Notes: generated by a model not told the origin, from the letters alone. Shown: positions 1 to 42,087, numbered from the stretch's first letter. The stretch is 64,000 nt of DNA from Fimbriimonadia bacterium (GCA_041483895.1 JBGPGO010000011.1:1-64000); one strand, 5' to 3'. Program-made: numbers and translations.

Positions 1-642
1 GGAAATGGGTTTTGCGCCTATTCCGCTCGACTTTTTTTCCGAGACGCGACGACGGGCGTTGACGGTCCGGGCGAGGTGATTGCGACGCCGGGCGACCTGA
101 TCGAGGTTTGGTTCTCGTTTCACAAGATCGACGCCGTCAACCCGTACAAGTGGGGGACGCTGCAGATCACTCTCTGTTTCGAAGGCGGCAACGCCATCGT
201 CGATCAGGCAGATAAGGATGCTTGGGAAACCTCGATTATTGCGGCCAAATCATCCGGTGGACCTAAAACGGACTTCCTTTCTACGGTGACCGGCGTGGGG
301 ACATTGTATGACAGCGCTATCGATCCGTATGATGATGTCCCAGGCAAAGTGTGCTCTGACGGTCTTTACGTCCTCCTTGGCATCAACAAGAACAGCACGC
401 GTTCGGAAGACTGGGACGTGCTTCTTTGGGAGTTCACTGCGCAGGCAAATGGCGTTGGCCAAACACTGAATTGGTTTTTCGACGGGCGGGACACAGGTAC
501 CGGGTTATCTACGCGGATACTCGACCAGAAGAACAACTCGGTGGACGTGACGGACAACCGGGTGACTGTGGTACCGGAACCTGCAGCGGTTGCCGGAGTT
601 ATTATGTGCGCGGCCGCAGTGTACTCTCGAAGAAGGAGATGA
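1..642 (+). CDS. PEP-CTERM sorting-domain surface protein, array copy 1 (5'-truncated by window edge)
   Basis: Frame is open from base 1 (GNGFCAYSARLFF...) and nearly identical to the N-terminus of copy 2; ends VPEP + hydrophobic helix + RRRR. Confidence 0.9.
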   Translation, partial: GNGFCAYSARLFFRDATTGVDGPGEVIATPGDLIEVWFSFHKIDAVNPYKWGTLQITLCFEGGNAIVDQADKDAWETSIIAAKSSGGPKTDFLSTVTGVGTLYDSAIDPYDDVPGKVCSDGLYVLLGINKNSTRSEDWDVLLWEFTAQANGVGQTLNWFFDGRDTGTGLSTRILDQKNNSVDVTDNRVTVVPEPAAVAGVIMCAAAVYSRRRR

Positions 643-648
643 TCGAGA

Positions 649-1332
649 ATGTTTCGTTTATTTGTTTCACTTTGGATGGTAGTCTTGTTTGCCGGAAATG
701 GGTTTTGCGCCTATTCCGCTCGACTTTTTTTCCGAGACGCGACGACGGGCGTTGACGGTCCGGGCGAGGTGATTGCGACGCCGGGCGACCTGATCGAGGT
801 TTGGTTCTCGTTTCACAAGATCGACACCGTCAACCCGTACAAGTGGGGGACGCTGCAGATTACCCTCTGCTTTGACAGCGCAATGGGGATCGTTGAGCAG
901 GCAGATAAGGATAACTGGGAACCATCGATCTATGCCGCGAAGGCGTCCGGTGGCCCGCCGAGCGATTTCTTAACAACGGTCGTCGCCGAAGGCTATCTAG
1001 GAGACGATGCTTTGGATCCGTCAGGCGGCGACGTCAAGGTTTGCGACGACGGCGTGTACATACTTCTAGGGATGAGAAGTAGCGCGCCTCGAACGGAGGA
1101 CTGGGATGTACTCCTGTGGGCGTTCACGATCCAACAGGCCGGCATCGGTCAGACCCTGAATTGGGCTCGGGATGGCTATGATACCGCCACTCGCCTTTCT
1201 ACCCGCATCCTCGACCAGAAGAACAAAACGGTGGACGTGACGGACAACTGGGTTGCGGTGGTACCGGAGCCGGGTAGCCTGTTTGTCTTTGCAATCCTCT
1301 TGGCCTTGGTACGAAGGCGAAAGGAGCCATGA
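649..1332 (+). CDS. PEP-CTERM surface protein, copy 2 (cohesin-like beta domain)
   Basis: Signal peptide, shared motifs NPYKWGTLQITLC and STRILDQKN, tail VPEPGSLFVFAILLALVRRRK. Confidence 0.92.
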   Translation: MFRLFVSLWMVVLFAGNGFCAYSARLFFRDATTGVDGPGEVIATPGDLIEVWFSFHKIDTVNPYKWGTLQITLCFDSAMGIVEQADKDNWEPSIYAAKASGGPPSDFLTTVVAEGYLGDDALDPSGGDVKVCDDGVYILLGMRSSAPRTEDWDVLLWAFTIQQAGIGQTLNWARDGYDTATRLSTRILDQKNKTVDVTDNWVAVVPEPGSLFVFAILLALVRRRKEP

Positions 1333-2010
1333 ATGATCCGATACGTTGTTTCACTCTCGATGGTACTGCTCGTTTGCGCCGCGCATGCGGCGTATACGGC
1401 GCGGCTCTTTCTCTACAACGTGACGACCAACGGTTCCAACGTAGGCGCGGTGACCGCCCGTCCTGGGGATGTGATCGAGATGTGGTACACGTTCCACAAG
1501 CTTGACAACGTAAATCCGTTTAAGTGGGGCACGCTCCAAGTAACGCTTTGCCTTGACGCGTTGAGCGTTATCAGCCCGGCGGATCAGGCGACATGGTCGG
1601 CACAAATCACCGGAGCAAAGTCTCAAGGCGGTCCCGCGGCAGATTTTCTTTCCGCTGTTATCGGTACAGGCGAGCTGCACGATAACGCGATAAACCCCTC
1701 GGATTCGTCGCAGCCGATCGTTTCGGCAAACGGGCTCTACTTTCTGCTCGGCATCGCTGGAGCGAGGGCGAGGGAGAGTAATTGGGATGTGAAGCTGTTT
1801 CGCTTCAATGTCGCTCCTGGAAGTGAAGGGGAGGTACTCGACTGGTGCTTGGACGGTCGAGACGCGCCAACCGGACTGTCTACGCGCATCCTCGACCAGA
1901 AGAACAAAACGGTGGACGTGACGGACAATTGGGTGACTGTGGTACCGGAGCCGGGCTTTTGGGCAGTTGCTGTGGTGGTGGTCTTTTTTGGCAGGAGGTT
2001 CAGAAGATGA
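1333..2010 (+). CDS. PEP-CTERM surface protein, copy 3
   Basis: Signal peptide, paralog motifs, VPEP-TM-RRFRR; abuts the stop of copy 2. Confidence 0.92.
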   Translation: MIRYVVSLSMVLLVCAAHAAYTARLFLYNVTTNGSNVGAVTARPGDVIEMWYTFHKLDNVNPFKWGTLQVTLCLDALSVISPADQATWSAQITGAKSQGGPAADFLSAVIGTGELHDNAINPSDSSQPIVSANGLYFLLGIAGARARESNWDVKLFRFNVAPGSEGEVLDWCLDGRDAPTGLSTRILDQKNKTVDVTDNWVTVVPEPGFWAVAVVVVFFGRRFRR

Positions 2011-2684
2011 AACGGTTTCCAATGGCGACCGTGCTGGCCATTTTCGTAGTGCAAGGAGTCAGCGCGGCCTACCAAGCGCGTCTTCTGTTTTATGACTCCT
2101 CAACAGGAAAGTCAAATTCCGGGGAGCTGATTGCCCGCCCGGGAGACCAAATCGAGGTTTGGTACACATTCCATGCGCTCGATACGGTCAATCCCTACAA
2201 GTGGGGAACGTTGCAGGCCACGCTTTGCTTGGACGGCCTCCGCCTGATCAGTGCAGCCGATCAGGCGACCTGGGCGGACCAGATCCAGAACGCCAAAGTG
2301 CAAAGCGGGGCACTGAGCGACTTTATGGCCACAGTCATCGGCAATGGACCCCTCTATGACAATGCCATCGACCCTTCGGATGTGACGAGCCCGCTTATCA
2401 GTTCGAATGGATTGTACGTCTTGCTCGGCATCCATCAAGTGCTGGCGCAGCATTGGGATGCGATGTTGTATCGGTTTACAATTGCTCCGGGCACCGAAGG
2501 GGATGTGCTTGGTTGGTGCCTGGACGGCCGAGATGCCGGAACCGGGCTGTCCACCCGCATTTTGGACCAGAAGAACCGGACGGTGGACGTGACGGATAAC
2601 TGGATCCATGTTGTGCCGGAGCCGGGATCTCTCTTTGCGTTTGGAATCTTGCTGGCCTTGCTACGAAAGCGAAAGGAGCCCTAA
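2007..2684 (+). CDS. PEP-CTERM surface protein, copy 4
   Basis: ATGA overlap with copy 3 and GGAGG RBS; MKRFPM signal peptide; VPEPGSLFAFGILLALLRKRK. Confidence 0.92.
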   Translation: MKRFPMATVLAIFVVQGVSAAYQARLLFYDSSTGKSNSGELIARPGDQIEVWYTFHALDTVNPYKWGTLQATLCLDGLRLISAADQATWADQIQNAKVQSGALSDFMATVIGNGPLYDNAIDPSDVTSPLISSNGLYVLLGIHQVLAQHWDAMLYRFTIAPGTEGDVLGWCLDGRDAGTGLSTRILDQKNRTVDVTDNWIHVVPEPGSLFAFGILLALLRKRKEP

Positions 2685-3341
2685 ATGGTTCGTTGTGTTG
2701 CTTCACTGTGGATGGTACTTCTCGTCTGCGCCGGGCATGCGGCGTACAACGCCCGGCTTTATTTCCGCGACGCGACCACGGGGGATTCGGGCACCGGACA
2801 GGTGACAGCGAAACCCGGCGACCTGATCGAGGTTTGGTTCTCGTTTCACAAGATCGACACCGTCAACCCGTACAAGTGGGGGACGCTGCAGATCACTCTC
2901 TGTTTCGACGGGTATGGGATCGTCAACCAAGCGGACAAGGACGCATGGGTTTCGTCGCTGAACGCCGCCAGGTCATCCGGAGGTCCTACATCTGATTTCT
3001 TGTCATTCATACCCTATGAGGGGGAGCTTTTCGATTATGCAATTGATCCCACAGACGTCGATGGAGGCCCGAGAGTCTGCAACGACGGGGCGTACCTGTT
3101 GGCGGGAATGAGGGCCACGGCGTCTCGGTCTGAGGCCTGGGACGCGCGTCTATGGCAGTTCACCGTGCAAGCCGAAGGCGTTGGCGAGACCTTGAACTGG
3201 CTATTCGACGGAAGGTCCACGAACAGAGGTCTTTCTACTCGCATTCTCGATCAAAAAAATGCAACGGTGGACGTGACGGACAACTGGGTCACCGTTGTTC
3301 CGGAGCCGGATGCTTGGGCATTGCGCTATTTCCCTGTCTGA
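2685..3341 (+). CDS. PEP-CTERM surface protein, copy 5, with frameshifted anchor (tail continues in another frame to 3394)
   Basis: VPEPDAWAL then an early stop; the shifted frame reads ALFPCLIWQTVRRRRRK. Confidence 0.85.
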   Translation: MVRCVASLWMVLLVCAGHAAYNARLYFRDATTGDSGTGQVTAKPGDLIEVWFSFHKIDTVNPYKWGTLQITLCFDGYGIVNQADKDAWVSSLNAARSSGGPTSDFLSFIPYEGELFDYAIDPTDVDGGPRVCNDGAYLLAGMRATASRSEAWDARLWQFTVQAEGVGETLNWLFDGRSTNRGLSTRILDQKNATVDVTDNWVTVVPEPDAWALRYFPV

Positions 3342-3573
3342 TATGGCAAACGGTCCGCAGGAGGCGCCGCAAGCCGTCTCAGCCGTCAAACTGACCTACT
3401 TTTGTCGTCGGCGAAGGCCGGAGCGTCCGGCCAGACCGGTTCCGTCGCAGCAATAGTGCTGGCCATGATTCAGACGCCGCACCTTCCAACTCCGATTCCT
3501 TGGGACGCGTACGTCGTCGTCTGGCACCCTGGCGGGGTCCGATGAGCCGCCGTTGGTATCGCCGCATACATAG

Positions 3574-3786
3574 ATCACTTCCAGCCCGATCGAAGCGAAC
3601 TCCGACTTCGACCTGATCAATGGCGATGCGTTCCAGGATAAACAGATCAATGTCCAGGATATGAGCTCGATATTCATCGACTTCGGTTCAAACGGGTCCG
3701 ATTACGATACGGATGAGAGCGGTGTGGTCGATTTACCGGACCTGAACAGGGTGTTTACGAACTTTGGCATGGCTGGGGATAACTAA
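3574..3786 (+). pseudogene. Orphan dockerin-like (double Ca-binding loop) C-terminal domain with no upstream start
   Basis: After an in-frame TAG (3571-3573) the frame reads ...FDLINGDAFQDKQINVQDMSSIFIDFGSNGSDYDTDESGVVDLPDLNRVFTNFGMAGDN*, matching the C-terminus of the S8 protease at 13361-14962. Confidence 0.8.
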
Positions 3787-3805
3787 TCCCACTCTGCCAT
3801 TTGAG

Positions 3806-3836
3806 GCCACCTGCCGCAAGGCGGGTGGCATTTTTT
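3806..3836 (+). terminator. Rho-independent terminator
   Basis: GCCACCTGCC-GCAA-GGCGGGTGGC followed by ATTTTTT. Confidence 0.85.
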
Positions 3837-3989
3837 GTTGCATCTCGCCGTTTGGCATGAAGCCTGCATGGGGTAAGCCGAACGCAAAAGATGTGCCGTC
3901 TGAACCGGTCTGAGCGACCGGACAGATGCTGAATTTGCGTGATTTTGGCCTTTTCGGAAAAATTCAGCAGGTTTTTTCTCGAGATTTCC

Positions 3990-4018
3990 TTGACAAATCG
4001 ACGAGGTTGGTGTAACCT
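3990..4018 (+). promoter_or_regulatory. Sigma70-type promoter for PEP-CTERM copy 6
   Basis: TTGACA-17 bp-TAACCT upstream of an AGGAG RBS. Confidence 0.65.
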
Positions 4019-4100
4019 GCATGCACAAGAGGTTGGAGAAACACTCCCAGTCCAAGGGCTGTAAACCTCTGCATTGATTCCGAAAAGGAGCTTTTGAACT

Positions 4101-4793
4101 GTGTTGATTAGAAACCTGGTGTGGTTCACTCTGGCTGCCACAGCCACTTCGAGCTGTTTTGGTGCATATTCGGCTCGTCTATTCTTCAAAAACGCTACCA
4201 CGAATAATCAGGCTGCCGGTCAGGTTCTAGCCTCGCCCGGTGACACGATTGAAGTCTGGTATTCGTTCCATGCGTCTGATGCTGTCAATCCGTTCAAGTG
4301 GGGGACCTTTCAAGCAACCCTATGCTTCGATGGTCTCACGCTTGTGAGCGCCGCCGACCAAGCCAATTGGGACGCTTCGATTGCAACCGCAAAGACGACT
4401 GGTGGCCCCGCAACCGACTTCCTGGCTACCGTAATAGGAAACGGCGAACTCCGAGACAACGCTATCGATCCGACGGATCCGAACTCTCCCAAGCTCTGCA
4501 ACAACGGCATCTATGTGTTGCTTGGTATCAACGGCAACAAGGGCCGCGCATCGCAGTGGGATGTCAAGGTATGGCAGTTCACCGTTAAGGCCGGTAGTTT
4601 TGGAAACACGCTTGACTGGCTCGTAGACGGTAGGGATACAGGCACCGGTCTATCTACCGGAATCCTCGACCAGAAGAATGTTAGGAAGGACATCACGGAC
4701 AACCATGTGACGGTCGTCGTTCCCGAACCGGGAACGCTGGCCGCAATCGCTACCGGTTTGGCGGGACTTGCCGCCTTGCGACGGCGAAAGTAG
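4101..4793 (+). CDS. PEP-CTERM surface protein, copy 6 (monocistronic, probably the main family member)
   Basis: Paralog motifs, canonical VPEPGTLAAIATGLAGLAALRRRK, own promoter, RBS and terminator. Confidence 0.93.
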   Translation: MLIRNLVWFTLAATATSSCFGAYSARLFFKNATTNNQAAGQVLASPGDTIEVWYSFHASDAVNPFKWGTFQATLCFDGLTLVSAADQANWDASIATAKTTGGPATDFLATVIGNGELRDNAIDPTDPNSPKLCNNGIYVLLGINGNKGRASQWDVKVWQFTVKAGSFGNTLDWLVDGRDTGTGLSTGILDQKNVRKDITDNHVTVVVPEPGTLAAIATGLAGLAALRRRK

Positions 4794-13360: not shown

Positions 13361-14962
13361 ATGCAAAAGAGAATTCTCGGCCTATTGGCAATATTGCCAT
13401 CCGTCCTCTTTGCGGGACCGACCTTCAATCTTCCGACCATGCCCACGTCGGGATATGTTCCCGATCGCGTACTGATTCGGTTCAAGCAAACGCCGACGCT
13501 GGAACAGTTTCGATCCATCGTCCAGCCTATCGGCGATTGCGAGTTTACGATCCCACAGCTGGCGGTGCATGCGATTCGGATCGGCACCGGCCAGAACCCG
13601 CTCGCGCTTGCCAAGCAGTTGGAAAAGAATCCGGCAATCGAATATGCCGAGCCTGACTACTATTTGCAGCTTGCCTACACTCCGAATGACCCGCTGTATA
13701 GCAATCAGTGGGATAAGCCAATGATCAACGCCCCGGAGGCATGGGACTATACCAAAGGCGATCCGAACACCATCATCGCAGTCTTGGATTCGGGCTATCG
13801 GCTCGATCATGAAGATTTGCAAGGACAGCTCGCCAATTACTGGAATGTCGTTTTGAACAACAATGACGTTCACGACGATCTCGGCCATGGAACGCTGGTA
13901 TTTGGCATGGCCGGCGCGATCATGGATAACAACTTGGGGCTTGCCGGCCTTGCTCCGAAATGCAGGTTCTTGATGGTCAAGATCACGTCGGGCGGCGGCG
14001 CGACGGATTCCGCCTCCGCGGCCGGTATGACCTGGGCGGCAGACCATGGCGCGCGTGTCGTCAACTTCAGCCTGGCAGGCCCGTCCGGCAGCACGACGCT
14101 GCAGAATGGCGTTACCTACCTTCGGAACGCCGGGGTAGTGTTTGTAGTAGCAGCCGGAAACAACAACAACACTTCAGCCACGTATCCAGGAATCTATACC
14201 CACTCCATCGCCGTCGCCGAGTCGAACGACCAGGACAATCGCGGCTATCAGTCCACATATGGGACTTGGGTGGAGGTCGCGGCGCCAGGGCAAAATGTGT
14301 GGTCCACAAATTGGGACAGCTATTCCGACTACCAGCCTAGGACGGGAACGAGCTACGCAGCACCCTTGGTTACCGCCGAGGCGGGGTTGATCTACGGCAT
14401 CATCGCCGATCCGGGTGAACGGACGACGGCGCTGGCGGACGAGGTTCGGAACATTATTCAGAGCAACTGTGTGGCAAAAAGCTTCGTTGCGTACGGCCGC
14501 GTTGATGTTGGCGCCGCAATTCGCAATTCATACGCCACGGTCAGCGGTCATATCGACCTCGATGTATGGCAGGGTGGTTCGAACGGCGTGCAAATCAAGC
14601 TGGATTTGCGCCAGCCCGGCACGCAGACTGTTGTCCAGAGTCGAACGGCAGTGTTAGACGCCACCGGTAACTACAGCGTCCGATTCACGAAAGCGGGGAC
14701 ATTCGACTTGGTGGCCAGTGGACCGGTGTGGTTGAACGCGGGAGCCGCCTCGATATCGCTAGCGCGCGGAATGAACAGCCAGAATTTCTCCTTGATCAGC
14801 GGCGATATTACTCGCGACAACGCCATCAATACGATCGACATCAATCAGATATTTGTCTTTTTCGGCACAGTGGCGCCGGGAAGCGACATCGATGGCGACG
14901 GGCTCGTAGACCTGGCGGACCTCTCGACGCTCTTTATCAATTACGGTCTTACCGGTTTCTAG
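13361..14962 (+). CDS. S8 subtilisin-like (thermitase-type) serine peptidase with C-terminal dockerin-like domain
   Basis: Catalytic D (VLDSG), H (GHGT), S (GTSYAAP), AAGN; C-terminus [13 protein letters not shown]...[13 protein letters not shown]. Confidence 0.93.
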
Positions 14963-41730: not shown

Positions 41731-41970
41731 CTAGTTGCTGTCGCGTTCAAAGTTCAATAGGACAAGATTGAAGTCATATAAATCCGTGATGCCGTCCCAA
41801 TTAACATCGCTATCTCTAAATCCATGTACGACGTTAAAACCCGAAATAATCGTGGGATCACAAGAGAAAACCGGCCCAGAGTCTATATGTGGACATTCAG
41901 CAGGCGTCTCTGCCATTTTCTCCTGGATTTGAACCGCACAAATAGTGTATCCTATCGGATAGGTTCGCAT
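41731..41970 (-). CDS. Small protein or remnant ending in a single dockerin-like loop
   Basis: DSDVNWDGITDLYDFNLVLLNF; AT-rich. Confidence 0.5.
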   Translation of the reverse strand: MRTYPIGYTICAVQIQEKMAETPAECPHIDSGPVFSCDPTIISGFNVVHGFRDSDVNWDGITDLYDFNLVLLNFERDSN

Positions 41971-42087
41971 TGTGGAATAGTCATTCCCAGGCGGCCAACA
42001 AACGATCCCGGTGGGATCTACGCTTTCGCTCTCGATGATATCCCTTTTGGCGGTCCTGAATCAGCCAATTCCTCAAGGAGGAGACCG

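Follow-up and report, generated by a model that had tools for sequence, protein, structure and literature searches.

Dockerins bind cohesins through two Ca-binding loop-helix repeats, and dockerins without a recognizable cohesin are, to our knowledge, a long-standing puzzle. PEP-CTERM proteins in general are processed by exosortase for surface attachment, and we know of no assigned function for most of them. In systems of the Clostridium (Acetivibrio) thermocellum type, the anchor is SLH or sortase. In the type II pairs of this organism, single-cohesin anchoring scaffoldins bind the X-module-dockerin (XDoc) of CipA (2b59, 5k39, 4u3s). Here, we describe a putative display system in a 64,000-nucleotide stretch from a Fimbriimonadia bacterium (GCA_041483895.1 JBGPGO010000011.1:1-64000, hereafter the window), which starts with six tandem paralogs sharing a ~185-aa domain, here called X, and further on encodes an S8 protease with a dockerin-type tag. 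On the basis of predicted structures and genome-wide counts, we consider it probable that exosortase-anchored proteins combining X with PEP-CTERM (X-PEP proteins) capture ~120 XDoc-tailed proteins by Ca-dependent cohesin-dockerin binding.

As in C. thermocellum, the tail models as the X-module plus dockerin dyad, and one surface-anchored cohesin-like domain is the predicted receptor. A sequence-only reading of the window had assigned the S8 protease a terminal dockerin-type tag, and this is borne out by a complete Ig+dockerin module at its C-terminus (14528–14959). The model of this tail, built from 57 sequences (pLDDT 97.7), returned type II X-module-dockerin chains in Foldseek with E values of 2.4e-10 to 5.9e-9 and TMq of 0.72–0.76 (best match 4u3s_B, E 2.4e-10, TMq 0.74), the next match following at E 2e-6, and its architecture is that of a type II XDoc, with an Ig-like X-module followed by two Ca-loop/helix repeats. 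The 113–114 parsed tags vary little in either Ca loop or either helix, with D1 and D12 present in 98–100% in both repeats, N14 in 71–81%, F17 in 73–76% and F20 in 81–84%, and PF00404 stayed below its cut-off on the tail (E 0.23 for the S8 protease; E 0.006 and 17.2 vs 22.9 bits for P0033).

Sequence searches gave X no name in Pfam or NCBIfam (best NCBIfam match 29 of 65 bits, over the tail), no PF00963 match in the six paralogs and no match among PDB sequences at E 10, while hhalign against a profile of Pfam-type cohesins reached 6.7% at E 0.0055 over 39 columns only. Against 1.84 billion representatives, X gave 43 matches, 37 of them at 1e-10; four weak long matches were discarded as a clue to its identity, being DUF11, PPC or Ig repeats without cohesin. 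The model of the paralog 6 domain has a predicted cohesin beta-sandwich fold, and in the Foldseek list, as far as rank 35, every adhesin falls below the cohesins. X is thus predicted to be a divergent cohesin, and the cohesin-like character claimed for it in the sequence-only reading stands at the level of predicted fold but not at that of PF00963 or the Pfam-type profile. All the single cohesins of Ruminococcus flavefaciens ScaC, ScaE and ScaG/CohG (5lxv, 2zf9, 4n2o, 4wkz), which carry an anchor or a dockerin, are among the Foldseek rows, and X likewise occurs in both architectures; unlike the R. flavefaciens proteins, to which no sequence similarity was detected in the PDB-sequence search, it has 29 paralogs in a diderm-type host. 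It also departs from the C. thermocellum system in its length of ~185 aa, with a helical insert and 6–17% identity to solved cohesins. The putative 8-3-6-5 docking face, with register and exposure assigned without coordinates, has an entropy of 1.09 vs 2.04; this one face appears to be kept across paralogs and families, with the variable positions lying off it.

Genome-wide (3.95 Mb, 95% complete), a domain HMM found 29 copies of X, with a single X in each of the 29 X-bearing frames and no PF00963 match anywhere, as anticipated for a scheme without a polycohesin scaffoldin. Five of these frames end in the Ig+dockerin tail and 24 in a PEP or PEG motif, 21 of the latter with the full PEP-CTERM pattern; a pattern filter gave 93 PEP-CTERM-like ends in all, a few of them likely false. 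The search for dockerin-tagged genes and for the exosortase was likewise successful: an iterated tag HMM recovered 121 frames, with the tag within two residues of the stop in 120 and an Ig module upstream of it in 110, and PF09721 matched once (C3:200236-201000, E 1.7e-45), beside a gene that is EpsI-like to judge from its position and length. Such a neighbor is also found in described PEP-CTERM/exosortase families (TIGR02595, PF09721; NF038129 and similar), which likewise combine a signal peptide, a passenger and a PEP-transmembrane-basic tail, but, unlike theirs, the X passenger has no NCBIfam match at cut-off. We surveyed 56 tagged proteins (every second of 111), finding 21 with propeller-type matches, five with protease matches, one with a melibiase match, 18 without a Pfam match, and none matching cellulase or xylanase families. 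The XDoc tail is, to judge from its cargo, a general secretome tag and not a cellulosome. The arrangement differs from C. thermocellum in that the anchor is PEP-CTERM/exosortase, the cargo is not cellulolytic, and XDoc sits directly on ~110 unrelated cargo proteins instead of on one polycohesin scaffoldin.

The array genes (Table 1) form a real family that had no earlier annotation; their products are small secreted proteins bearing a signal for cell-surface anchoring. The window is the beginning of contig C11; the four public runs that match it are sediment metagenomes, and named homologs are labeled Fimbriimonadales or Fimbriimonadia, which suggests Armatimonadota as the phylum. Every paralog has the ~185-aa domain followed by VPEP, and the paralogs are 49–58% identical to gene 6, which has a leader and tail similar to those found on homologs from relatives. 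TIGR02595 is above cut-off in genes 2, 4 and 6 and at 15.0 against a cut-off of 16 in gene 1, with no listed match in genes 3 and 5, although genes 1 and 3 pass the PEP-CTERM pattern filter, and a hydrophobic stretch and basic end are visible in gene 3. Gene 5 ends 10 residues past PEP, lacking the transmembrane and basic tail, so that the at least six tandem genes of the sequence-only reading hold in number, domain and VPEP motif, but not in the completeness of this anchor. Public contigs span both this short tail and the TAG at 3571–3573 with 0 differences (one run may be the source sample). Identical blocks of 34–132 nt amid 64–74% overall identity point to recent gene conversion or unequal crossing-over among the paralogs. 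As the end of contig C12 holds five further paralogs and overlaps the C11 start by 83 nt, the array probably continues there to 11 genes in all, the join being ambiguous because genes 1 and 2 have common 5′ ends.

Table 1. Coordinates of the array genes, tagged protease and dockerin fragments in the window
Feature	Position	Strand	Remarks
Paralog 1	1..642	+	X + PEP-CTERM; 5′ open, cut at contig start, with the start at the end of contig C12
Paralog 2	649..1332	+	Signal peptide + X + PEP-CTERM; 132-nt 5′ block identical to paralog 1
Paralog 3	1333..2010	+	Signal peptide + X + PEP-CTERM-like tail; best reciprocal match of family-f4 profile, E 6e-5
Paralog 4	2007..2684	+	Signal peptide + X + PEP-CTERM; start overlaps paralog 3 stop
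Paralog 5	2685..3341	+	Signal peptide + X + PEP motif; anchor without membrane and basic parts
Orphan dockerin fragment	3574..3786	+	Intact two-repeat motif; in-frame stop ahead, no standard start, no Ig module
Paralog 6	4101..4793	+	Signal peptide + X (modeled domain 4164–4718) + canonical PEP-CTERM
Secreted S8 protease bearing tag	13361..14962	+	PF00082, E 1e-36
Ig-like X-module + dockerin (XDoc) tail	14528..14962	+	C-terminal; modeled
Degenerate half dockerin	41731..42060	-	Short open frame; second Ca loop only (E 2.5e-6), no Ig module

Relatives were compared in an order sample of 61 genomes, in which PF00963 has no match, and a phylum sample of 301 genomes, 41 of which have PF00963 matches. 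Tags are abundant in 26 of the 61. Only the window's family (f1) has close X homologs, nine copies in G001 and 10 in G002; they were absent from the 58 other genomes (0/58), from a set of 300 (0/300) and from five searched at E 10 (0/5). The resulting argument against co-occurrence was overturned by a remote homolog among 31 locally scored PEP-CTERM proteins (G005/G020), and the absence outside f1 is thus a sensitivity limit. This remote family, from two tag-rich genomes, aligns to X at 92.5% and returns paralog 3 of the window; after iteration, it was found in nine of 19 f4 genomes, with signal peptide, domain and PEP-CTERM wherever intact. The X superfamily so defined occurs in 12/26 tag-rich vs 0/35 tag-poor genomes and, within f4, in 8/9 contiguous vs 1/10 fragmented assemblies. 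A match in G010 (E 0.003) was rejected as partial and lost with a wider profile, and no convincing match to the X or f4 profile (best E 0.005) was seen in 64 PEP-CTERM proteins of G016, G035, G040 and G043, a set drawn from the 60 loci returned and not from every PEP gene of these genomes.

A further PEP-CTERM family, with an RPYG motif, was chosen by eye from this set of 64, in tag-rich f2 genomes. Its profile matches a Pfam cohesin (E 1.6e-5 among 30), one member bears an XDoc tail, and one shares two ESM Atlas clusters with X and has one 19%-cohesin cluster besides; the comparison of RPYG with X itself gave 0.2%, which does not establish homology. In four genomes with one or two tagged genes apiece (G003, G013, G031 and G052), the gene immediately 5′ of a tagged gene, in the same orientation, is an RPYG gene; all four pairs are from one genus. 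Leaving out the three seed genomes, RPYG occurs in 4/6 tag-bearing f2 genomes, adjoining a tagged gene, vs 0/10 tag-free ones. Together, the X superfamily and RPYG occur in 19/34 tag-bearing vs 0/27 tag-free genomes, which agrees with the proposed co-occurrence of cohesin-like and dockerin-tagged proteins, although the counts are overstated, since kin are non-independent and both the seeds and the inspected PEP repertoires were those of tag-rich genomes. No tag was seen in the ~1.5-kb flanks of 22 X-like loci, a distance that would miss the C-terminus of a long neighboring gene. The wider proposition, that Fimbriimonadales have a scaffoldin-free two-tier display in which exosortase-fixed divergent cohesins hold >100 XDoc secretome proteins, with several fast-evolving, Pfam-invisible families (X, its f4 relatives and RPYG) across lineages and with minimal cohesin-plus-cargo gene pairs, is in our judgment evenly balanced between holding and failing.

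On structural grounds, at the level of the predicted models, a display that couples cohesin-dockerin docking with exosortase is well-supported. In such a display, the array proteins would be exported by Sec, after which exosortase would cleave the X-PEP proteins and attach them to the cell surface, as we infer from what is known of the family. Ca-loaded XDoc tails would then dock on the 8-3-6-5 face of X, and the five proteins with both X and XDoc would serve as adaptors, lengthening or branching the display in the manner of single-cohesin adaptor scaffoldins. The paralogs had been proposed to provide different docking specificities, but, given uniform tags and variable positions that fall outside the putative face, we favor a single specificity common to the paralogs over a separate one for each. 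The paralogs would accordingly differ on the other face, and their expansion would provide more docking capacity or surface variation, not sorting.

Several observations weigh against this reading. The assignment of the X fold to cohesin or CnaA is the one clear ambiguity in the models. Besides the overstated counts, 11 tag-rich genomes have neither X superfamily nor RPYG, and the single tagged gene of G007 has no cohesin-like neighbor in the 4–4.5 kb upstream. Furthermore, anchor swapping is, to judge from homology, general in this genome: of the 72 PEP passengers other than X, 20, in four families, are homologous to members of a set of 116 tagged passengers. In relatives, X is also the leading domain of large multi-domain proteins. 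A passenger adhesin accounts for these two observations as well as an adaptor cohesin does. It is possible, though we think it rather unlikely, that X is such a passenger, a surface domain in the cohesin/CnaA fold class (an adhesin or variable coat protein), with PEP-CTERM and XDoc as interchangeable anchors, XDoc docking on another receptor, and tandem expansion plus gene conversion giving surface variation. CnaA-type domains have a Lys-Asn isopeptide with a catalytic Asp/Glu. The first strand of X, however, has Arg (R5) in 25/28 rows and no conserved Lys, which may argue against such a bond; the C-terminal N180 is present in 26/28 rows. X is also a single domain, unlike the CnaA/DEv-IgG adhesin domains of pilins and antigen I/II (RrgB, CppA, PrgB, SpaP), which rank below cohesins in Foldseek. 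The conservation of one putative face across paralogs and families and the failure to find any X-superfamily gene in the 35 tag-poor genomes also speak against a passenger. That the tail instead works independently of cohesin, serving as a signal for export or sorting or as a module for Ca-dependent self-association or membrane binding, with X unrelated and co-occurrence reflecting shared ancestry of tag-rich lineages, is improbable: the tag is uniform and C-terminal, like sorting signals, and, as in G007, no cohesin-like neighbor lies in the 4–4.5 kb upstream of the second tagged gene in G031 or in G052, but the tail models as a full structural XDoc, and RPYG lies beside tagged genes in the seed-free f2 comparison.

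Non-cellulosomal cohesin-dockerin systems have been proposed from genomes for the "planctosome" (PMC6461901) and the Ca. Stygibacter complex (PMC8542988), which share with our proposed display the dockerin-tagged peptidases and the diderm surface. Their cohesins are described as Pfam-detectable and carried on large scaffolds anchored by a lamin-tail domain or CTD, whereas the receptor here would be many PEP-CTERM single domains invisible to PF00963. For Fervidibacter sacchari, cohesin and dockerin domains are reported to be absent (PMC11535203). A literature search, which most subscription papers lay outside, found no paper combining cohesin with PEP-CTERM or PEP-CTERM with dockerin, and nothing relevant on PEP-CTERM in an Armatimonad context. 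If our reading is correct, exosortase and cohesin-dockerin systems would be joined for the first time, naming the missing receptor of the Armatimonadota tail; a cellulosome-type docking pair would serve as a general surface-retention system, coupled to exosortase, in a diderm-type bacterium, and new, probably orthogonal pairs would become available for display engineering. X is a small, expressible candidate receptor with a ready ligand set, which reduces the question to a single binding experiment.

The two remaining dockerin-like frames in the window, both previously taken as tags, are incomplete. The frame inside the array retains an intact two-repeat motif (54% identity to another tag by tblastn, E 2.5e-17), but TAG at 3571–3573 directly precedes it, no standard start codon was found ahead of the domain, and the three plus-strand frames upstream hold no Ig module, so it is likely a gene remnant; neither an Ig remnant nor a parent gene for it was found. 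A GC-rich hairpin followed by a T run lies directly 3′ of it (3806–3836), and the remnant seems to keep its terminator; gene 6 would then form a separate transcription unit. The minus-strand frame is half a dockerin, with the second Ca loop alone. Other fragments, either tag-only or of truncated X, lie at C1:54933-55151, C2:163665-163763 and C29:10914-11327 of the window's genome (G000) and are, by sequence, remnants of the X/tag system scattered over the genome.

Elsewhere in Armatimonadota, a gene of another family (L173:1336-1995, G300:C2) has the architecture of the X genes, with a PEP-CTERM-like tail, but its cohesin is a recognizable one of Pfam type. Polycohesin proteins occur in L161 (G276:C218), G095, G119 and G142, with at least seven PF00963 matches in one 2197-aa frame, and scaffoldin-like proteins, as judged from these matches, thus exist in the phylum. 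Within one genus, L152 (G032:C20) and L128 (G005:C3) share upstream leader and PEP tail around very divergent domain alleles, which suggests allele replacement at a variable surface locus. For X as well as for RPYG, the nearest feature neighbors in the ESM Atlas are two clusters without a name, of 171 and 200 aa and mostly of tailed-phage records (scores 0.87–0.92). In P0035, L014 and L015, at least six Big_3 Ig repeats follow X, and the protein ends in a domain unlike either PEP-CTERM or XDoc; this could be a stalked form or carry a third anchor. The genome also has a second expanded, here unannotated PEP-CTERM family of 18 members (frames of ~340–520 aa; contigs C1, C2, C3, C5, C9, C10, C16, C18, C21, C27 and C34) with two XDoc-tailed homologs (C5:221115-222671 and C23:6274-8028). 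Finally, among the 116 tagged passengers, that of C13:52719-54479 matches the RPYG-family profile at E 6.5e-4 and is possibly another cohesin-like domain.
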